64,000 nucleotides of DNA from Cyanidioschyzon merolae (lineage: Eukaryota): assembly GCA_000091205.1 (NCBI GenBank), contig AP006494.2, one strand, 5' to 3'. A program made the translations under genes and the position numbers. Below the pieces are notes generated by a model. The model did no database searches. It had not been told where the DNA came from and worked only from the letters and a program-made list of their open reading frames with translations. How positions within the stretch are numbered: the stretch's first letter is position 1; each line of letters opens with the position of its first letter. Shown in pieces: positions 33,009 through 40,743 of this stretch.

Positions 33009-33617
33009 TCACGTCGACGTGCAGCCTGGATCATCGCAAGTATCTGCTAATGCTGCCTCGACAAGCTTACCAAGTCTTTTCTGTTCCCTTTTCAGTAGTT
33101 TCTTCTGCTCTTTCTCGCGCGCTCTAGCTTGCTCCTCTTCATAATCGGCAAGAGCCTTTCGAGCGGTTCGTAGCATGTCCAAGAGCTCTGGCCGTTTGCC
33201 CCTTGTTGCTTCAAGTTGCCGCTCTGCGTCCGCAAACGAGAACCAACGCCTCGGCCGTTCCCTGGACTCTTGCCACAGGGGATCACCGGGTCTGCGTTCC
33301 AGTTCCACGAGCATCAGAAACATAGTATGTTGTTCCCCGCTCCAAGGTCGCCATGTGCCAAGTTTAGCGAGTACTGTACCCTCGACACCGGCTTCCTCGC
33401 GCGTTTCGCGAACCGCAGCTTCTTTGGGGCTCTCTTTTCGCTTCACTCCTCCTTTCGGAAACAGCCACACTCGCGGGTCGTACTTGGAGCGAACCAGCAA
33501 AACCTCATACCGGTCACAGGGTCGCGCACTGGCTCCGGCAACTGGCTCGGCAACAGCGCTCGAAGCCACGGGCCTCGTGGGGACACAGCCCGCGACTTTT
33601 CGCCCTGAGCCGCCCAT
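33009..33617 (-). CDS. Nudix hydrolase, DIPP/Aps1-like (diphosphoinositol/diadenosine polyphosphate phosphohydrolase type)
   Basis: Nudix box GGVKRKESPKEAAVRETREEAGVEG fits Gx5Ex7REUxEExGU and resembles DIPP GGGMEPEEEPxxAAVREVxEEAGVKG. KR-rich C-terminal tail. Confidence 0.8.
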   Translation of the reverse strand: MGGSGRKVAGCVPTRPVASSAVAEPVAGASARPCDRYEVLLVRSKYDPRVWLFPKGGVKRKESPKEAAVRETREEAGVEGTVLAKLGTWRPWSGEQHTMFLMLVELERRPGDPLWQESRERPRRWFSFADAERQLEATRGKRPELLDMLRTARKALADYEEEQARAREKEQKKLLKREQKRLGKLVEAALADTCDDPGCTST

Positions 33618-33877
33618 GTACTAAAAACATTCACTGTTTCGCTTCGAGATTATATGTAAGAAGTACAAACTTCCATGAACGACCAGGGTTTGCAAAGAAA
33701 GCCCTTGCCGAGTGAAGAAGAGTCCCTGGAGTACTCAACAGCGGTGCATACGCATACCAGGGATCGTGTCTGAGCAACGAAACGCTGAGGCGTAGCGGTG
33801 TCGGGATCCCCGACGATTAGCTGGTGGACCTCGCACCGCGCGATGCAATGCCCTCTGGAATGCTCGGTACCCTAAAC

Positions 33878-34325
33878 GCATGGACATGATGGGTATCGCA
33901 TTGCTCCGGATACTCCGCGATCCTTTGATACTCTCGATCACTTTCGAGGCATGGACATGATGGGTATCGCATTGCTCCGGATACTCCGCGATCCTTTGAT
34001 ACCCCCCGATCACTTTCGAAGCATGGACATGATGGGTATCGCATTGCTCCGGATACTCCGCGATCCTTTGATACCCCCCGATCACTTTCGAAGCATGGAC
34101 ATGATGGGTATCGCATTGCTCCGGATACTCCGCGATCCTTTGATACTCTCGATCACTTTCGAAGCATGGACATGATGGGTATCGCATTGCTCCGGATACT
34201 CCGCGATCCTTTGATACTCTCGATCAATTTCGAAGCATGGACATGATGGGTATCGCATTGCTCCGGATACTCCGCGATCCTTTGATACTCTCGATCACTT
34301 TAGAAGCAGAGACATCATGGGTGTT
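33878..34325. repeat. Minisatellite: about 6.5 tandem copies of a 71-72 bp unit
   Basis: Unit gcatggacatgatgggtatcgcattgctccggatactccgcgatcctttgatac(tctc/cccc)gatcactttcgaa starts at 33878, 33949, 34021, 34093, 34164 and 34235, plus a degenerate last copy. The ORFs listed across it (33735-34187, 33817-34116, 33951-34175) are repeat artefacts. Confidence 0.9.
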
Positions 34326-34402: not shown

Positions 34403-35878
34403 GTGCTGTGGCCTGCAGCACAGAGGAGTTGCTTGCTAGCACTGAAAACGTGGTTGTTGAACTGTGGTCTCGAACGTTGCGCCAAACAAATGCAGTCATT
34501 CACTGTTGACGGACTTGAGTCTGTATTGAATGATGGATCGAAGTTTGCATTCGTACTTAGCAACCCGCGATGCTCGCTGGTGAGCCAGAGCGTTCAGCTG
34601 GAGCGAGCGCAGCTCACGCGCCGTCCTATTCGAAGACGCCGGTGCGTGCTCAAAATCAACAGCCTAGCGCAGCTTCTCTTCGCATCGTCTTGGGCAGCTT
34701 ACGGGTTCCGCGAGCTTGAGCGCCGTTTAGAAGGGCGCCTCGTAACAGCGGGTGCCAGAAGACCCGTGCACGCGGGCGGCGTCGGGGTACCACCCTCGTT
34801 TGCCGGTTCGCAGTACCAGACTGTGGTCGTGTGGCTTCGAGAAGGTGAAAATCTAAGGCTCCACGACAATCCAGTCATAGAAAAGGCACTAGCACTCTCC
34901 AGAGAGGGAGCCAGTACCCCCGATGCGGGCAGATCGTCAGGTCCCGACCAGTCTTCGTGGTTGCCGACACGTTTGTTGCCCATATTTATCGAAACGCCCT
35001 GGGACAAGCATGGACGACTGCGCACCTGGCGACAGCAGAAACAAGTTAGGGAATGCGTTCAGTTCCTTGGGGAGGCGCTCCACCAAACCGGCAGTGGACT
35101 TGTGTGGGTTCGCGTCTCTGACACACACCTGACGCGTCTCGAGGATATGGCCAATTTGAGGACTGCTGCGCTCGTGGAGACCCTTGCATCCCTTGAGCTT
35201 CACTCTCTGACTGCGGTGACGTATCCTTGCGGCGGGACCCGATTACAGGGTCTCGAAGAGGAGATACTCGTTCAGCGCCTTGGCTCCAGCACAGATGCTG
35301 ACGCAGCAGCGAATGCTCTGCAACGCCGTGCTATGTGTCGCGCGATTCGGCTCGTCAGCGTTCAGGATACTGCGAATACGCTGTTCGCGTTGGCGCGGCT
35401 CCCGTTCTCGATTGCAAAGATGCCCGATGATTGCGATGCGTTTGCGCAGGCCCTGGACACACTGGGAGAGCCCGAGCCAAGCCAGCATGCACCGGTCTCA
35501 TTACCGCCTCTGCCCCGCGAAGCACTGGATTCTCCTTTTTACTACAATCCCGAAATCGTATCCGGAAAACCCCCGATGGTCGATTCCCCTGATGCACACC
35601 AACCCTTTCATGAGCAATTCGTTCTCGAAGCGCTTGAAGCGTATGCCAAATCCGAGACGCCGCTCGTCATGATTGCTGATGATACGATTCAAACACGGAG
35701 CCAGGGCATCCTTGGGGTCGCCATGGAGCTGGGTTGCCTCTCGCCGCGGCGCTTCTGGCACGCTATTCGAGAGCATCTTCCGACAACATCCATTCGTCGC
35801 CAGTGTGCGTGGTTTGATATCATCCTTCACGATTTCGTACGTTTATTGACATGGAAACGTGGTATTCACCCAGCATGA
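34403..35878 (+). CDS. Cryptochrome/photolyase-family (CPF, cry-DASH-like) ORF, truncated within the FAD-binding domain; possible pseudogene or split gene
   Basis: VVVWLREGENLRLHDNPVIEKALA matches the CPF N-terminal WFRxDLRxxDNxAL. ...GILGVAMELGCLSPRRFWHAIREH...CAWFDIILHDFVRLL matches cry-DASH FSPWLAFGCISPRFIYEEV...VLFELIWRDYFRFL. The ORF then stops, and a convergent gene follows at 36055. Confidence 0.6.
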   Translation: MLWPAAQRSCLLALKTWLLNCGLERCAKQMQSFTVDGLESVLNDGSKFAFVLSNPRCSLVSQSVQLERAQLTRRPIRRRRCVLKINSLAQLLFASSWAAYGFRELERRLEGRLVTAGARRPVHAGGVGVPPSFAGSQYQTVVVWLREGENLRLHDNPVIEKALALSREGASTPDAGRSSGPDQSSWLPTRLLPIFIETPWDKHGRLRTWRQQKQVRECVQFLGEALHQTGSGLVWVRVSDTHLTRLEDMANLRTAALVETLASLELHSLTAVTYPCGGTRLQGLEEEILVQRLGSSTDADAAANALQRRAMCRAIRLVSVQDTANTLFALARLPFSIAKMPDDCDAFAQALDTLGEPEPSQHAPVSLPPLPREALDSPFYYNPEIVSGKPPMVDSPDAHQPFHEQFVLEALEAYAKSETPLVMIADDTIQTRSQGILGVAMELGCLSPRRFWHAIREHLPTTSIRRQCAWFDIILHDFVRLLTWKRGIHPA

Positions 35879-36054
35879 ATCTTTCTGATACGCTCCGTGT
35901 CGCTCAGGAGCGTCGCCTGATTGCATGCGTACGCAGTGGATTGTGCTAGTGCATCTGAACAACATGTTGCCTCATCTAACTGGTTTCTAAAGCAATTACC
36001 GGGACGCATTCGTCGCTCGTGAAGAGCGCCATCGAAATCGAGTGCTAAGCGTCA

Positions 36055-36453
36055 CTACTGGTGCCTCTGGTCCATTGCGTGCTCGCGGAGGAGCGCAAGC
36101 GACACCACACGCAACGCGTTCTCGTGACAAGCCTCGAGGATGACCGGCGGTGCGACCCCTGCGTCATACGCTTCCTTCCATCGCGATGCGCATAGACACC
36201 ACTTGTCCCCTGGTCGAAGTCCGGGAAAGCCAAATTGCAGGGCAGGCGTCGACAAGTCGTTCCCGCGCGACGCAGTGAAAGCCAGAAACTCCGCCGTAAC
36301 GCGAGCGCACACCGTGTGGGACCCGATGTCCTCTGGACCTGTTGCACAGTAACCGTCGCGATAGAACCCTGTCCGAGGCTGGAAGCAGCAGGGCGCGAGC
36401 GGCCCCCCTAAAACGTTGCGAGGCCGGTCTGTGTTGCCGTTCGGGGCAACCAT
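36055..36453 (-). CDS. DUF2237-family protein
   Basis: NVLGGPLAPCC...GFYRDGYCATGPEDIGSHTVCARVTAEFLAFTASRGNDLSTP...PGLRPGDKWCLCASRWKEAYDAGVAPPVILEACHENAL matches the DUF2237 consensus. The track ORF extends to 36573; the Met at 36453 fits the family length. Confidence 0.7.
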   Translation of the reverse strand: MVAPNGNTDRPRNVLGGPLAPCCFQPRTGFYRDGYCATGPEDIGSHTVCARVTAEFLAFTASRGNDLSTPALQFGFPGLRPGDKWCLCASRWKEAYDAGVAPPVILEACHENALRVVSLALLREHAMDQRHQ

Positions 36454-38426
36454 GCGCACTGGCTGGAACGCGAGCGCCCGCCACGATGAAGCTGCCCAGT
36501 CAGCCGAGCTCAGTGTCTGCCGAGCTGGCGGGAAAGAAAGCGAGTTAGCGAACGGTAGCGCGTTACTTCTCATAGAACTGGTTTCTTAGGCCAATGAAAC
36601 CCAGAAAGTCCCACGAAAGCGATTTTATGGAGCCCACGACTGTTATTGCACCCGAGGTTCGTTCGTCGAGCTCGTCGGCCAGCGTTGCATCCGGTGAAAC
36701 GATGCGGCTCCCGGTGCCGGTATCCTGTCAGGCAGGCAGGCGCGCGTGGGTGCAAAGCCTCGACCCGGGATTCCTGGGGCAGGTCCCGCTCGCTGGGATG
36801 TTCGAAGCTCATGACGTTTGCTGGTATGTTTGGCTGTATCTTGATCCAATGAGAAACGAGCGCCCATTTCAGGTACCTGGCGAATATTCCGCAGCAACAC
36901 GAGATGTGCTCGTTTCGGATGCCTGCTGGTGCGCAGTATTGCTCGTTCTCCACAAATTTCGATGCAGTCTGGGGGCACCACTGTCGGAGCAATTGCAAGG
37001 CTGCGCATGATGCTCGCACAACGGATGCTTCCATGCTCTGCGACGCCGAGCCGGTGCTCCGCGGAGTCCTGATATATACATACGCTGGAAACCAGTGCTC
37101 ATGGAAGCATTGCATCCGAGCTTCGCATTGCGAGCGACGCACAGGCCTGTGCACCGACCTGGGAGCGGTTGCCGCGTCATCTGGAGATACACGCAGTAGA
37201 GCATCTCGAATCAGCTGTATGTATCCATCGAAAAAGCAGCAAATATGGTGGAAAATCCGCATAGTCACGTCGATGGCAAGCAGGGCGCTCGTTCGCACAC
37301 GCCAAAAGCATTTCGTACGACCTGAAACATCGTCGCCGAGGGCATTCGAATCATAAGCATCAACACTTCCCGAAATAGCCATAAGTGTTGCGCATTCGCG
37401 AGATCACCGGCTCAACGCACCATGCCTACACTGCCAGCGACTGGTGCCTCGATTCCGAGCGGCGTGATGCGATCGATGGGTAGTGCTGGTCGCCTGTTCG
37501 TTACTTACGTGCAGAGCGTTGCGGGAAACGCGGATTACGCGTCGACGTGTACTGCTGACAGGATCATGAACGCCAGAGAAAACAAACATAGATGATTGCC
37601 ACCAGGAATACGGCATGATTGAGTGGCATTCATCGGGTCTGTTTTTCTGGCTTTGAATGCCCTCGCTGCCGTACCTGTCGGGTCTGCTGCTGATGGGCAT
37701 GTTTGATTTCCGGAAGCAGAAGCCCGCTGAACAAGCAGTGAAGCATGTAGGGGAATCCATACGCACGGATGTCAAGTCTTCCTAGTCGTTATGATCTGAA
37801 TGGGAATATCTCGAGTGCAAACGGCCGGACACGGTAGCGCCCTGAGTGCAGGTCAACAGCAAGATGCAGGATCTCGCGATGCAACCTGGTTCAAGGTCGA
37901 TGCACATCCGCGGTTCTTCTGTCACTAGTCAAACACATTCGCACCCATTGATTGCAGGAATGAAGATTCATGGATGTAGACGCTGAATCTACCTGCATCG
38001 TTGCGATAGCGGAGCGCTTTCAATCGATGCAGTCAGCACACGTGTGTGGCTGGAGTATCTCGGGGAAAACACTGCGACGTTGCGTGCGCAGATGGAGCCT
38101 CTCTTCCCAGGGGCGAAATACGTATGGTGATTCTGCACGGTCGAGTAGAGGATCATGGCAATATTCTGGGAAACGCAAGCGTTCATGGCTTCGTGCGCTG
38201 CGTACGTGTCCCAGCGTGGATGGATACGCACACGTGTGACTCCAGACACTTCAAAGTAGCCCTGTTTCTGAACCTAATCGCTCTGGAATGGAATCACAAC
38301 CCAAACCATGGCAATCGCGTACCGAGACGATCGATCAATCCCTGAACATACGGCTGTGCCGAATCCATCTGTCCCTTGATTCATAAAACGAATACGGAAC
38401 CACTAACGATTGTAGCATTTTGCAAC

Positions 38427-38558
38427 AACAATAGTCCTCATCGAAGATACTCGCACCTCGATTCATGATACGTATGCCTGGCGAACAACAATTGCGGTAC
38501 TGGGCAACAAAAGTCCTCATCGAAGATACTCGCACCTCGATTCATGATACGTATGCTC
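38427..38558. repeat. Tandem duplication of about 50 bp (two copies roughly 78 bp apart) upstream of gene 38662-40743
   Basis: caacaa(t/a)agtcctcatcgaagatactcgcacctcgattcatgatacgtatgc occurs at about 38427-38477 and again at about 38505-38558. Confidence 0.6.
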
Positions 38559-38661
38559 GACAACTGACAATTGCAGCATCACGCATCATCTGTTTGAGAT
38601 ATCGTGCATTAGGAGGCAGCATCAATGTACGCAGTACGAACAGCAGGCGGATCACCCGTAC

Positions 38662-40743
38662 GTGGACACTCCAGCGGGGCGTGGCGGCTCAAGCGCGGGA
38701 TTCTCGGCAGCGGTTGCGCGCTCCAACGCCACCCGGGTTCGTGCGTGGCTGGGGCCTCCTCACGGGTCTTACAAAGGGTTCTCGGCACTTTTGTTCTTGT
38801 TTATGAATCACGATCCTAGAAAAAATTCTTTGCATAGTATAAGACGGCATGGAGGAGAAGTTTCACCCGTGAGGCTTGATACTCGGCAGCAATCACGTAC
38901 GAGGTTTCTGCGTCCTGTGCGCAGGTGGTACGTTTGGCTGGGACTGCCTCTTCTGGGACTGGCCCTACTCTGTGTGCGGTGGTGTCCCTCCTATAAAATT
39001 GGAAACCTTTTGGATGATCATCAGGACTTGAGGATCATTTCGTACGCGTACCGAGAAAGCTCGCCACATGAACTTCGGAACCTGGAGTTCTTCCTTCGAC
39101 ATGGAGTCTATGCTGACCCGAAGAGTCTCTTTTTCATCATAGTAAACGGTGGGACTTGCACACCCTGTGAGTCCGCTGACGCCAAGCGGCCAAACGTGCA
39201 CGTACTAAGAAGAGAAAACTACGGCTATGATTTTGGTGCACACGGACACCTACTGAACCAGCTTGAGATTCAGGGACAGCTGCAACGTCTGAAGCGCCTC
39301 TACTGCATCAACGCTTCTGTGCGGGGTCCGTTCCTGCCCAAATTCTTTCGTGATCGGCCATGGACTGCTGCGTTTGACAGCCTCATGCGAGGAAATGTAG
39401 CAGCTGTTGGAGCCTCGCTCGTCTGTCTGCCAAAACAGGATGCTGGTGGCCCAGGGGCGCGGCTTGAAGGTTTTGCTTTCGCGTTGAGCGCAGAGGGCAT
39501 GCTGGCCGCTCGACGAGCAGGTGTCTTCCGATCGTACCCTAGCAAAAGGGACGCTATACTATACGGTGAATTTGGCTTGACGCGAGCCCTTTTCCAAGCC
39601 GGTCTCTCTGTGGACACGCTCATGACCAAATACCAGCGAATATGGAACGCATCCAATGAGCTGGTAACCTGCAACCGTAACGTGTTCCCTAGTCGCCACG
39701 GAGCGGTCGATGGCGTCGATCTTCACCCCTATGAGACACTATTCATGAAAACACAATGGATGATGAGCTACCCGTACGTGCTACTGTACTCAGAGTGGAT
39801 GGATCATCCGGATGCACCGGAGCTTCCAGATATTCATAGGTACTACCACTTTCAGCATGATGATCAGGTGCATCCAATTGAACCTCCACGAGTCGCCTCG
39901 CCCCTGATCGGCGATAAGAAGCTCGTTCTGGTGATCTGGGATACGCCCAATTCGTCGGTTGAGTGGGAAAATATCGAGCACTTGCTTGCAAGTATACGGC
40001 TCTCGGACAGCATAGACTACCTGTTGGTTATTCGCGATGGCCAGGTCGCTGCACGCGTTCGAGAAAAACGTGTGGATAGGCTTCCGAACGTGCGTATCGT
40101 CTCCGAAATCCGTAGTTCGTTGAACAGTCTTTGCATGCAAGGCCTCACGATTTTGCGCACGAACAGCCGATATTTAGCATACAATTTTTTTGTCTTCATC
40201 ACACAACATGCGCGCGGACCTGTAGGTGTCTGGAGCAGCAACGACCAGTGGATAGTTTCTTTGGAAGAACACCTTCGCACGAAACAAGTTGGGCTGCTGT
40301 TCTCATTCATTCATCTTTCGGGTGAAATGCTCCAGCCGGATCCGAGTTTTTTCTGCATGGACCATCGCGGCCTGCATCTTTTGCTTCGAGGTAGCGTTTG
40401 TGACCGCACCGACGTGGCAGGCACGCTACTTGGTATGAAACGAGTGGCTTCTGATGTATTGGGTCGCTCGATCGGGTTCAGTTCGTTGCAGCCCGGAACG
40501 CCTGTCCTGCAGAATACGGCGAGCCTGATGGAACCGAATTTGAGACAGATCTTCAGTCGTCCTTTAACCGAGCTATCATCAGAAGAACTTTCAGATCTGA
40601 TCTTTGTTCCCGTTGCGACCATCAACAAGCAGGATTCGGATTCTGAGCGGATCATTGCGGAACGACTTCGAGAGCTTCCCGGTCCCTTTTCGACGAAGCT
40701 GTCCACACAAGTCGCCACGAACACAACGTCCATGATTTCATGA
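38662..40743 (+). CDS. Hypothetical type II membrane protein (693 aa), possibly a glycosyltransferase-like enzyme; family not recognised
   Basis: Long ORF with a single predicted signal-anchor VWLGLPLLGLALLCV about 105 aa from the N-terminus, followed by a large globular region (LRIISYAYRESSPHELRNLEFFLRHGVYADPKSLFFIIVNGG...). No diagnostic motif recalled. Confidence 0.55.
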   Translation: MDTPAGRGGSSAGFSAAVARSNATRVRAWLGPPHGSYKGFSALLFLFMNHDPRKNSLHSIRRHGGEVSPVRLDTRQQSRTRFLRPVRRWYVWLGLPLLGLALLCVRWCPSYKIGNLLDDHQDLRIISYAYRESSPHELRNLEFFLRHGVYADPKSLFFIIVNGGTCTPCESADAKRPNVHVLRRENYGYDFGAHGHLLNQLEIQGQLQRLKRLYCINASVRGPFLPKFFRDRPWTAAFDSLMRGNVAAVGASLVCLPKQDAGGPGARLEGFAFALSAEGMLAARRAGVFRSYPSKRDAILYGEFGLTRALFQAGLSVDTLMTKYQRIWNASNELVTCNRNVFPSRHGAVDGVDLHPYETLFMKTQWMMSYPYVLLYSEWMDHPDAPELPDIHRYYHFQHDDQVHPIEPPRVASPLIGDKKLVLVIWDTPNSSVEWENIEHLLASIRLSDSIDYLLVIRDGQVAARVREKRVDRLPNVRIVSEIRSSLNSLCMQGLTILRTNSRYLAYNFFVFITQHARGPVGVWSSNDQWIVSLEEHLRTKQVGLLFSFIHLSGEMLQPDPSFFCMDHRGLHLLLRGSVCDRTDVAGTLLGMKRVASDVLGRSIGFSSLQPGTPVLQNTASLMEPNLRQIFSRPLTELSSEELSDLIFVPVATINKQDSDSERIIAERLRELPGPFSTKLSTQVATNTTSMIS

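Follow-up and report, generated by a model that had tools for sequence, protein, structure and literature searches.

Gene content of the locus

The window analyzed here, a 64,000-nucleotide stretch of contig AP006494.2 from the red alga Cyanidioschyzon merolae 10D, carries on its plus strand an ORF (34403-35878) in which a first-pass annotation, made from the sequence alone, had recognized the N-terminal domain of a cryptochrome/photolyase family (CPF) member and an early end within the FAD-binding domain. Both observations were borne out by the ORF list, Pfam, and a family profile. Counted from its mechanical GTG start, the ORF would encode 491 amino acids. The first in-frame ATG is found at 34490, and the 462 codons that follow contain no internal stops and are closed by a TGA stop ending at 35878. 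Translation from this ATG exactly matches the 462-aa NCBI protein XP_005536762.1, and the gene is already annotated as CYME_CML116C (hereafter CML116C; BAM80726.1, XP_005536762.1, and M1USP6, all in one 90% cluster). The suspicion that the start had been mis-called was therefore justified in part, as the GTG at 34403 is a mechanical start. Since the real start is the ATG at 34490, the extension preceding the W-x-R motif comprises about 114 aa and not about 130 aa, as had been estimated.

The convergent DUF2237 gene that had been proposed downstream was confirmed as well. The minus-strand ORF 36055-36573 matched PF09996 over the full profile length (E = 6.3e-55), and 176 bp separate it from the CML116C stop codon. 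The coordinates of all features are collected in Table 1.

Table 1. Features of the CML116C locus, with positions given in the window and amino acids counted from the ATG.
Feature	Position	Strand	Evidence
Complete CDS of CYME_CML116C	34490..35878	+	ORF list, sequence reading, exact NCBI/UniProt protein
N-terminal extension, aa 1-105, beginning M-Q-S-F; putative transit peptide and linker	34490..34804	+	pLDDT, dN/dS, Phe at position 4
Photolyase-type alpha/beta (Rossmann-like) domain, aa ~108-295	34811..35374	+	PF00875, predicted strands, CRY-DASH alignment, Foldseek
Inter-domain linker, aa ~296-372	35375..35605	+	Alignments
Helical (FAD-binding) domain remnant, aa ~373-462, four helices	35606..35875	+	AF2 helices, end of family profile
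Conserved natural stop codon TGA	35876..35878	+	Ortholog ends, limit of nucleotide similarity
Convergent intergenic spacer, 176 bp, 3' ends of both genes	35879..36054	.	blastn, tblastn
Convergent DUF2237 gene (context, separate from the CPF gene)	36055..36573	-	PF09996, synteny

Domain architecture and the absent C-terminal part

In the comparison with CPF HMMs that the first-pass annotation had recommended, PF00875 (DNA_photolyase N-terminal domain) was significant in CML116C, though it barely passed (27.2-27.4 bits vs a cut-off of 26.6), and its match covered aa 112-210 of the 462-aa protein, while PF03441 was absent. The alpha/beta domain holds VVVWLREGENLRLHDNP, in which the W-x-R-x-D-L-R motif carries a 2-residue insertion, and its first helix is followed by another insertion of about 23 aa. 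For structure prediction we used a family alignment of 35 sequences, i.e. CML116C and 34 of the 45 matches of the exhaustive HMM search given below. The AF2 model obtained with this alignment had a pLDDT of 77.7 and a pTM of 0.74, and the input mattered, as an alignment of 3 sequences yielded a pLDDT of 42.6. Five strands were predicted in the alpha/beta domain, with a pLDDT mostly above 90, and the helical-domain remnant, which ends with ...GCLSPRRFWHAIREHLPTTSIRRQCAWFDIILHDFVRLLTWKRGIHPA, was modeled as helices H375-386, H403-414, H419-429, and H435-457 (pLDDT about 90-97).

A Foldseek search with this model returned 6KII and 1NP7 as top matches, and the top matches were all CPFs. The profile of the protein's own family, when compared with CRY-DASH structures, gave E-values from 7e-79 to 2e-72 and spanned residues 5-305 of 1NP7 and 28-341 of CRY3. 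By both profile and predicted fold, the closest solved relatives of CML116C are CRY-DASH proteins (1NP7 from Synechocystis, 6KII from Arthrospira, and CRY3, 2J4D/2VTB, from Arabidopsis), which are collinear with it from the W-x-R-x-D-L-R strand through the WRDFFRF helix. The earlier claim of a match to cry-DASH "segment by segment" holds for family profiles and the predicted fold. It was, however, too strong for the single sequence, because a phmmer search of all PDB chains with CML116C gave no match at E ≤ 1.

The profile match ends at about residue 305 of 489 in 1NP7 and about residue 341 of 525 in Arabidopsis CRY3, directly past the ...ELxWRDFFRF..K.G helix. Beyond this shared end, CML116C has 0 residues, in contrast to 180-249 residues in full-length CPFs. 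The missing part, which includes the flavin pocket of the full-length enzymes, thus amounts to about 190-200 aa and not to about 250 aa, as assumed previously. The protein keeps about 90-100 aa of its helical domain, so that the gene ends early inside this domain and not at its boundary. CRY-DASH proteins, in contrast, have a full length of about 490-570 aa, contain PF03441, bind FAD and MTHF, and repair CPDs in ssDNA, whereas CML116C stops early and, in its remaining part, has the residues aligned to cofactor contacts replaced.

An intact, anciently truncated gene

The two orthologs of CML116C (488 and 502 aa, 54-58% identity) share its last residue (...HPA). That of Cyanidiococcus is F1559_002887, and there is a frameshift in its assembly. 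The gene order CobW / NUDIX / CPF / DUF2237 is kept in Cyanidiococcus and in a third cyanidialean genome, with the position and orientation of the DUF2237 neighbor unchanged, and the convergent arrangement is ancestral. A functional tie between CML116C and this neighbor was considered but set aside, its sole support being the synteny shared by close relatives. In blastn comparisons with the orthologous loci, nucleotide similarity extends as far as 35874-35884, where the stop codon lies, and is seen again within the DUF2237 gene. The spacer between the two genes showed neither blastn similarity to the two orthologous loci nor a tblastn match to photolyase C-terminal halves. The dN/dS ratio (NG86) between CML116C and an ortholog was about 0.11 for the domain, and the last 60 codons proved to be the best-conserved part of the gene (dN 0.106 / dS 1.97, ratio about 0.05), while the N-terminal extension is poorly conserved (dN 0.89 / dS 1.79).

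Two word-indexed homolog searches returned three cyanidialean proteins only, and such a search with a broad alignment retrieved mostly full-length bacterial photolyases. When 1.84 billion representatives were searched exhaustively with an HMM, 45 matches were obtained, nearly all of them 330-503 aa long. The same end helix is present in all 34 aligned homologs, which come from red algae and glaucophytes and include green-type PPLs, and the proteins extend 0-36 aa past it. PF00875 was detected in each of the 35 family sequences and PF03441 in none. Relatives in Compsopogon and Timspurckia have complete transcriptome ORFs that are likewise short and share this stopping place.

These data bear on the first-pass suggestion of a recently truncated pseudogene. 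In such a scenario, a deletion or rearrangement would have removed the 3' half of a full-length cry-DASH gene and brought the DUF2237 gene adjacent to the remainder. Such an origin would account for an end that lies inside a domain essential to all functional photolyases, with the next gene a mere 176 bp away, and for the weak CPF similarity of the single sequence (27 bits; PDB search empty), as in a decaying gene. However, the identical stop and the DUF2237 neighbor recur in two other cyanidialean genomes, the end helix is common to all 34 aligned homologs, the reading frame has no internal stops, and selection (dN/dS of about 0.1) is tightest in the last 60 codons. The pseudogene reading is refuted by these findings, and we give it next to no credence.

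It had also been suggested that the gene is split, with its other half elsewhere. The FAD half would then have to be united with it in the RNA or in the protein to give a functional photolyase. An N-terminal half could conceivably be complemented by a C-terminal half encoded at another locus, and our search for one covered the 64-kb window. Nowhere in this window did the C-terminal halves of 11 full-length CPFs (beyond about residue 300) find a tblastn match, which leaves it with no FAD-domain coding potential. The C. merolae genome has very few introns. Furthermore, the Compsopogon and Timspurckia ORFs are complete and equally short at the transcript level, the conserved ...KRGxHPA followed by a stop speaks for a true C-terminus, a PF03441 fragment is found in 0 of 35 family members, and the DUF2237 gene is the ancestral neighbor. 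As far as the 64-kb window and the family sequences go, a split or spliced gene is highly improbable.

We conclude that CML116C is an intact gene under purifying selection that was truncated anciently. As it is no assembly or decay artifact, inventories of red-algal light sensors and repair enzymes should not include it as a photolyase or cryptochrome.

Relation to PPL/PHR2, cofactor sites, and probable role

The remaining first-pass proposal, that of a novel short protein consisting of photolyase homology only, was right in substance but not in the novelty of its kind. Truncated CRY-DASH-derived PPL/PHR2 proteins, with Arabidopsis GERALT among them, have been described (PMC4564169, PMC9498864, bioRxiv 10.1101/2024.08.16.608208), their FAD domain is truncated to about 95 aa (PMC4564169, PMC9498864), and PPLs have been reported in red algae (PMC9498864). 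CML116C itself appears in the literature as a gene "similar to CRY-DASH" (PMC10252272). Like CML116C, the PPL/PHR2 proteins (At2g47590 = PHR2 = GERALT; Mei & Dvornyk 2015, Deppisch et al. 2022) are composed of a presequence, an alpha/beta domain, a linker, and about 95 aa of the FAD domain, with a total length of about 350-500 aa. Both end a few residues past the "..RDF.R..T.K" helix, and both occur in Archaeplastida, including red algae.

However, CML116C differs from PPL/PHR2 in several respects. Three motifs, ppl1-ppl3, have been defined for the PPL subfamily (PMC9498864). The first, ESxSxxPVYCFDPR, is absent from CML116C, in which the aligned place reads ...SSWLPTRLLPIFIETPWDKHGR, and so is the second, (B)S(J)YGANFSCKI, as CML116C has DTIQTRSQGILGVAM where PPL-type proteins have GADFSCKISPW. 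The third, FFRFxTxK, compares with FVRLLTWK in CML116C, in which 4 of 6 fixed positions are kept, including T-x-K, which is missing from CRY-DASH proteins. The K-T-G-R-Y-R-A-K-F-L block of PPLs is also lacking. In the linker, CML116C carries the signature P-D-D-C-D-A-F (35423-35443) in place of the P-D-x-[YF]-T-x-F of CRY-DASH and PPL proteins.

This signature is shared by a group of 28 short proteins, which we refer to as the DDCD type. Within P-[DE]-D-C-D-x-F, the Cys is present in 89% of the 28 members and the Asp in 93%, whereas all other CPFs have Y/F and T/S, respectively. The clade is further marked by S-x-R-R-x-C-A ahead of the last helix, by L at the W position of "WRDF", and by a C-terminus of the form ...T-x-K-x-G-x-x-P-x. 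Across the 28 members, conservation at these positions is 82-96%, and PPL, CRY-DASH, and other CPFs have different residues there. CML116C shows all of them, as PDDCDAF, SIRRQCAW, ILHDF, and LTWKRGIHPA, the last belonging to its conserved ...L-T-x-K-R-G-x-H-P-A terminus. When CML116C was scored against HMMs, the DDCD-type profile, built without its close orthologs, gave 198 bits, as compared with 56 bits for the PPL type and 19 bits for two CRY-DASH sequences. A numpy-computed NJ tree of Kimura distances, containing no Arabidopsis sequence, recovered the DDCD clade with 92% bootstrap to the exclusion of PPL and joined PPL with CRY-DASH at 91%, although this is a distance method applied to divergent sequences and long-branch effects are possible. 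A single monophyletic group of all short forms received 6% bootstrap in the same tree. Should the two short clades have no ancestor in common, the same truncation point would have arisen twice.

Galdieria yellowstonensis and Timspurckia each contain one PPL-type and one DDCD-type protein, and because the two types coexist in these organisms, CML116C is to be regarded as a paralog and not an ortholog of the PHR2/GERALT subfamily. The named members of the DDCD clade are rhodophytes without exception. CML116C thus belongs to a separate, little-studied clade of short CPFs, found so far in red algae only, that is sister to plant PHR2/GERALT. We also considered that it might simply be a fast-evolving PPL/PHR2 (GERALT) ortholog with no clade of its own. 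The identical truncation point, the partial ppl3 match, the reported occurrence of PPLs in red algae, and the ability of NJ to misplace long branches among divergent sequences could all be read in this way. Against such an assignment stand the coexistence of both types in two species, the absence of ppl1 and ppl2, the difference of 198 vs 56 bits, and the bootstrap support for a DDCD clade without PPL. The PPL listed for Cyanidiococcus is KAF6001014.1 (Deppisch et al. 2022), which may or may not equal F1559_002887. Altogether, we hold orthology with PPL to be unlikely.

The cofactor sites differ between the two types as well. Glu149 and Glu150 of CRY3, which we take to be contacts of the MTHF antenna, align to L252 and Q253 of CML116C. 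The pair is not conserved in the DDCD clade, while PPL and CRY-DASH proteins have E-[DE] there. Similarly, the S-x-K-x-S-P-W loop, which presumably contacts the FAD phosphate, as judged from the E. coli photolyase structure, is replaced by Q-G-I-L-G-V. According to the alignment, PPLs keep both the positions of the MTHF-ligand Glu pair and this loop, and CML116C has neither. Two cysteines are instead conserved in its clade, C315 (in P-D-D-C-D-x-F) and C439 (in R-R-x-C). It appears that red algae harbor two lineages of "half" photolyases, and that the lineage of CML116C is devoid of the flavin- and folate-aligned residues kept by plant PHR2.

With the pocket absent and the loop replaced, the sequence argues against FAD binding and against light-driven repair or signaling by CML116C. 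A different view, in line with the older PHR2 literature, would be that the protein has remained a flavoprotein dependent on light, with FAD or an antenna pigment bound in some non-canonical manner. The alpha/beta domain, which in photolyases holds the antenna chromophores, is kept and predicted with high confidence, CML116C has been listed as CRY-DASH-like, and PPL is called a photolyase in reviews (PMC9498864, PMC4564169). However, PPL was credited with photolyase activity on the basis of a Chlamydomonas protein which is actually a class II CPD photolyase (bioRxiv 10.1101/2024.08.16.608208, a preprint), and of the three putative C. merolae CRY-DASHs, only two were seen to repair CPDs in ssDNA (PMC8591175). 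Moreover, the loss of about 190-200 aa with the flavin pocket is accompanied by the changes of E149/E150 to L/Q, of the FAD-phosphate serines to Q-G-I-L-G, and of the W of WRDF to L. We therefore consider a flavoprotein improbable. Other, full-length CPF genes of the same genome, including the CRY-DASH-like CMA044C and CMJ130C, were reportedly characterized by Asimgil and Kavakli in 2012. CML116C appears in one list with them (PMC10252272) but differs from them in being without the catalytic half.

These findings led us to propose, as a likely explanation, that CML116C is an intact, naturally short nuclear gene of a red alga, derived from CRY-DASH, that it forms part of its own clade, and that it encodes a probably plastid-targeted protein which is likely to be chromophore-free and not a photolyase. 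It descends from a photolyase/cryptochrome of the CRY-DASH type, of which the alpha/beta domain, the linker, and the first 90-100 or so helical residues were retained. The loss of the following 190-200 residues or so is ancestral and not recent. In full-length members of the family, these residues form the flavin pocket and the tryptophan electron-transfer chain as well as most of the lesion pocket. With no flavin pocket, and with replacements at the positions aligned to the MTHF and FAD-phosphate contacts, the present protein most likely carries neither chromophore and would be neither a photolyase nor a photoreceptor. More tentatively, and with somewhat less than even confidence, we suggest that the DDCD type is an unnamed family of short red-algal CRY-DASH derivatives, paralogous to PPL/PHR2, which lost both chromophore sites and gained the conserved cysteine pair C315 and C439. 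If this is true, the photolyase scaffold may have been reused for a light-independent job, possibly as a redox- or metal-regulated plastid factor.

CML116C probably acts in the plastid, as a light-independent scaffold or as a nucleic-acid- or protein-binding factor for plastid gene expression or biogenesis. This assumption is based on the following: (i) the N-terminal M-Q-S-F presequence and (ii) the analogy with GERALT, which is localized in the chloroplast stroma and needed for greening and for PEP-dependent transcripts (bioRxiv 10.1101/2024.08.16.608208, preprint). GERALT, known in this role from a preprint, is a member of a paralogous clade and comes from a distantly related lineage. In the AF2 model, residues 1-5 and 15-105 of CML116C had a pLDDT below 50 and are predicted to be disordered. 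The Phe at position 4 has counterparts in relatives that begin with MEAFVP or MSAFVP, and an F-based motif marks the plastid transit peptides of red algae (PMC7038456). The extension also includes acidic residues and cannot be aligned between the orthologs, so that the case for plastid targeting consists of a single Phe motif and the analogy, and we regard the extension as a plausible putative targeting peptide.

Since GERALT is linked to chloroplast biogenesis and C. merolae is a genetically tractable organism with a single plastid, CML116C and its paralog would offer a simple system for the study of a flavin-less photolyase scaffold. We judge the significance of these results to be moderate, as the gene was already annotated, its general architecture had been described, and its function is one that we infer. 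With respect to localization, Arabidopsis CRY3 is found in both chloroplast and mitochondrion (bioRxiv 10.1101/2024.08.16.608208), and, against the analogy with GERALT, another PPL, CmPHR2 of Chrysanthemum, has been reported to be nuclear.

The gene and the extent of its CRY-DASH similarity

The first in-frame ATG of the cryptochrome/photolyase family (CPF) ORF, at 34490, gives a protein of 462 aa. In an exact-sequence look-up it shared a 90% cluster with BAM80726.1 / XP_005536762.1 / UniProt M1USP6, also of 462 aa and titled 'hypothetical protein CYME_CML116C [Cyanidioschyzon merolae strain 10D]'. This identified the window as C. merolae chromosome 12 and the gene, CML116C, as already annotated. 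The convergent DUF2237 gene seen in the first-pass annotation proved to be full-length, the two stop codons being separated by 176 bp. Between CML116C and the divergent NUDIX gene lies a near-perfect tandem array. It ends 168 bp 5' of the CML116C ATG, occurs once only within the window, resembles nothing at the orthologous loci in the two other cyanidialean genomes and gives rise to spurious repeat-encoded ORFs on both strands. A second repeat, situated just 5' of a 693-codon ORF, overlaps its start; a Pfam search with this ORF gave no match at E <= 1.

Coordinates of CML116C, its neighbors and local sequence features (window positions)
Feature	Position	Strand	Remarks
NUDIX gene, upstream, divergent	33009-33617	-	Pfam
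Spurious repeat-encoded ORF	33735-34187
Tandem array	33878-34322		71-bp unit, 6.2 copies, 96% matches
Spurious repeat-encoded ORF	33951-34175
CPF ORF, mechanical GTG start	34403-35878	+	491 codons; six-frame ORF list
CML116C	34490-35878	+	462 aa
Insertion in W-x-R-x-D-L-R	34844-34852	+	WLREGENLR
Low-complexity insertion	34895-34969	+	~20-23 aa
Cys315	35432-35434	+
Cys439	35804-35806	+
DUF2237 gene, full-length, convergent	36055-36573	-	PF09996, E = 6e-55
Repeat	38426-38574		79-bp unit, 1.9 copies
693-codon ORF	38662-40743

By itself, CML116C is a marginal CPF match: Pfam returned PF00875 (the N-terminal alpha/beta domain) alone, which scored 27.2 bits (gathering score 26.6) over profile positions 1-75 of 164, and phmmer with the single sequence found no match at E <= 1 among all PDB chains. 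The earlier description of a match to cry-DASH 'segment by segment' was thus overstated for the single sequence, although the kinship it asserted is clear through the relatives. With a profile of the three cyanidialean orthologues as the query, HMMER was run exhaustively against 1.84 billion representative proteins and yielded 45 matches, almost all 330-503 aa long; 34 of them were combined with CML116C into a family profile of 35 sequences. The best structures hit by this profile were CRY-DASH proteins (6KII, 7e-79; Synechocystis 1NP7, 6e-73; Arabidopsis CRY3, 2e-72), and the three matches all stopped just past the ...FELxWRD[FY]FRF..K.G helix; in 1NP7 (489 residues) the match ends at residue ~305, and in CRY3 (525 residues) at ~341. 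The AlphaFold2 model built with the same alignment (mean pLDDT 77.7, pTM 0.74) was confident for residues 106-462, with most blocks above 90, and Foldseek ranked 6KII and 1NP7 on top among PDB entries, followed by other CPF members. In the family-HMM alignment, 0-36 residues extend past the HMM end in the short members versus 180-249 in eleven full-length photolyases, and a Pfam search detected PF00875 in 35/35 short proteins and PF03441 (the FAD-binding domain) in none of the 35. These findings indicate that the alpha/beta domain and the linker are retained in CML116C, together with four helices, some 90-100 aa, from the helical domain. About 190-200 aa of the latter are absent, and the ORF does stop inside the FAD-binding domain, as first proposed.

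Age of the short form

The early stop had been ascribed to a recently truncated pseudogene, to a gene split from a half lying elsewhere, or to a novel short protein containing only the photolyase homology region. The following observations bear on these readings: (i) two orthologues, one of 502 aa in Cyanidiococcus yangmingshanensis and one of 488 aa in a third cyanidialean genome, are 54-58% identical to CML116C and share its end residue (...LLTWKRG[IV]HPA); (ii) the order and orientation CobW-like / NUDIX(-) / CPF(+) / DUF2237(-) are kept in the three genomes, with proteins only ~55% identical, so the convergent DUF2237 neighbor is ancestral and was not placed there by a recent rearrangement; (iii) nucleotide similarity to the orthologous loci reaches 35874-35884 and returns inside the DUF2237 gene, none being found in the 176-bp spacer; (iv) Nei-Gojobori comparison with the 488-aa orthologue, approximate since synonymous sites are near saturation, gave dN 0.33 / dS ~2.9 for the folded part, dN 0.106 / dS ~2.0 for the last 60 codons and dN 0.89 / dS 1.8 for the N-terminal 105 codons, which makes the C-terminus the region of the gene under strongest constraint, the reverse of what a truncation scar would show; (v) in tblastn with the eleven full-length photolyases, their residues ~2-290 matched 34820-35845, and their C-terminal halves found no match within the 64-kb window; and (vi) transcriptome ORFs of the Compsopogon and Timspurckia relatives, flagged complete, are equally short. 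The six lines are independent of one another, and together they show an ancient short form that is under selection. The common orthologue end, the synteny and the dN/dS values rule out a pseudogene, and the ancestral neighbor and the last two observations speak against a split gene as far as the 64-kb window and the relatives' transcriptome ORFs reach. Decay might be suspected in Cyanidiococcus, where the orthologue (locus L001 of VWRR01000006.1, 6436-7537) shifts reading frame at ~6893, a change that the deposited gene model spans with a 31-nt gap, losing ~10 conserved residues (YPCGGTRLQG). However, since both halves are well conserved, an assembly indel is likelier than a real intron or pseudogenization.

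The remaining reading, a short protein, was right except for its novelty, as a naturally truncated CRY-DASH architecture is already known. The PPL ('plant PHR2') subfamily, whose FAD-binding domain is just ~95 aa long, has been traced to a probable duplication of CRY-DASH (PMC4564169; PMC9498864) and has been reported from Viridiplantae and Rhodophyta (PMC9498864). The PPL set of Deppisch et al. includes Galdieria XP_005706429, Porphyra OSX75752 and Cyanidiococcus KAF6001014, C. merolae being outside that study; the first two, which we inspected, are PPL-type in sequence.

Two types of short proteins

The alignment divides the 35 short proteins into two types. Seven are PPL-type, with clusters whose named members are Galdieria yellowstonensis, Timspurckia and the glaucophyte Cyanophora, and carry the blocks K-T-G-R-Y-R-A-K-F-L, P-D-x-Y-T-x-F, G-A-D-F-S-C-K-I-S-P-W-L-A-L-G-C and E-L-V-W-R-D-F-F-R-F-I-T-x-K-Y, which span the published ppl1-3 motifs. 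The other 28, CML116C among them, are defined by P-[DE]-D-C-D-x-F (hence 'DDCD type'), ..T-K-F-G-R-L-x-P-F-L-x-x-G-C-x-S-P-R-R, S-x-R-R-x-C-A-E-F, L-R-D-F with L replacing an otherwise universal W, and the C-terminal end ...T-L-K-x-G-x-x-P-x; conservation at these positions is 82-96% among clade members, and PPLs, CRY-DASH and other photolyases have other residues there. All named DDCD members are red algae (Cyanidioschyzon, Cyanidiococcus, Galdieria, Compsopogon, Timspurckia, Rhodosorus and Purpureofilum). Since both types occur in Galdieria yellowstonensis (PPL 443 aa, DDCD 390 aa) and in Timspurckia (442 and 412 aa), they are paralogues. CML116C scored 198 bits with a DDCD-type HMM from which its close orthologues had been left out, 56 bits with the PPL type and 19 bits with two CRY-DASHs, the three training sets being unequal in size. 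In a Kimura-distance neighbor-joining tree (289 columns), bootstrap values were 92% for the DDCD clade, 91% for PPL plus CRY-DASH and 100% for the cyanidialean trio; monophyly of all short forms obtained 6% only, a value for which long-branch effects could account. The identical truncation point and the common T-x-K would argue for a single truncated ancestor of both types. On sequence grounds, CML116C belongs to the second clade and is no PPL orthologue. The gene is intact and under selection, and its product is an anciently short CRY-DASH derivative from a clade of red algae that stands apart from PPL/PHR2.

Two insertions are shared by the cyanidialean subgroup and the three proteins nearest to it: one of 2 residues in the otherwise invariant W-x-R-x-D-L-R strand-loop, and a low-complexity one past the first helix, modeled with low confidence.

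Cofactor sites and possible function

Alignment with CRY3, 1NP7 and 6KII showed that E149/E150 of CRY3, the first of which we take to be the MTHF ligand, are L252/Q253 in CML116C; the DDCD clade shows no conservation of the pair, whereas PPL-type and CRY-DASH proteins keep it as E-[DE]. PPLs also keep the loop S-x-K-[FI]-S-P-W-L-A, in which the serines presumably bind the FAD phosphates in photolyases (as in the E. coli enzyme); it reads F-G-R-L-x-P-F in the DDCD clade and Q-G-I-L-G-V-A in CML116C. The W of W-R-D-F, which belongs to the lesion pocket of photolyases, is replaced by L in CML116C. Because of these replacements and the missing flavin pocket, canonical chromophore binding by CML116C appears unlikely.

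Residues 1-105 are disordered in the AlphaFold2 model, scarcely alignable among orthologues and fast-evolving. The protein starts with M-Q-S-F, and many DDCD members with M-[ES]-A-F-[VI]-P. In red algae and glaucophytes, plastid transit peptides have a phenylalanine-based motif at their extreme N-terminus (PMC7038456), which this start resembles. Plastid targeting is therefore plausible, although the extension also contains several acidic residues.

CML116C has been listed as one of three C. merolae 'CRY-DASH-similar' genes (PMC10252272), and according to a review, two of three putative C. merolae CRY-DASHs repair CPDs in ssDNA (PMC8591175). The Arabidopsis PPL GERALT (At2g47590), a relative of the CML116C paralogue, is a chloroplast stromal protein whose loss causes albino cotyledons and fewer plastid-encoded-polymerase transcripts, and its authors judged it neither photolyase nor photoreceptor (preprint 10.1101/2024.08.16.608208). 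By likeness to GERALT, we tentatively propose, at slightly less than even chances, that CML116C might be a plastid-imported, light-independent binding or scaffold protein without flavin or folate, acting in plastid gene expression or biogenesis.

Cys315 and Cys439 are conserved in ~90% of the DDCD clade, the corresponding positions being Y/F and T/W/D in every other CPF group. The two could make up a redox or metal site, and they hint at regulation of this kind.
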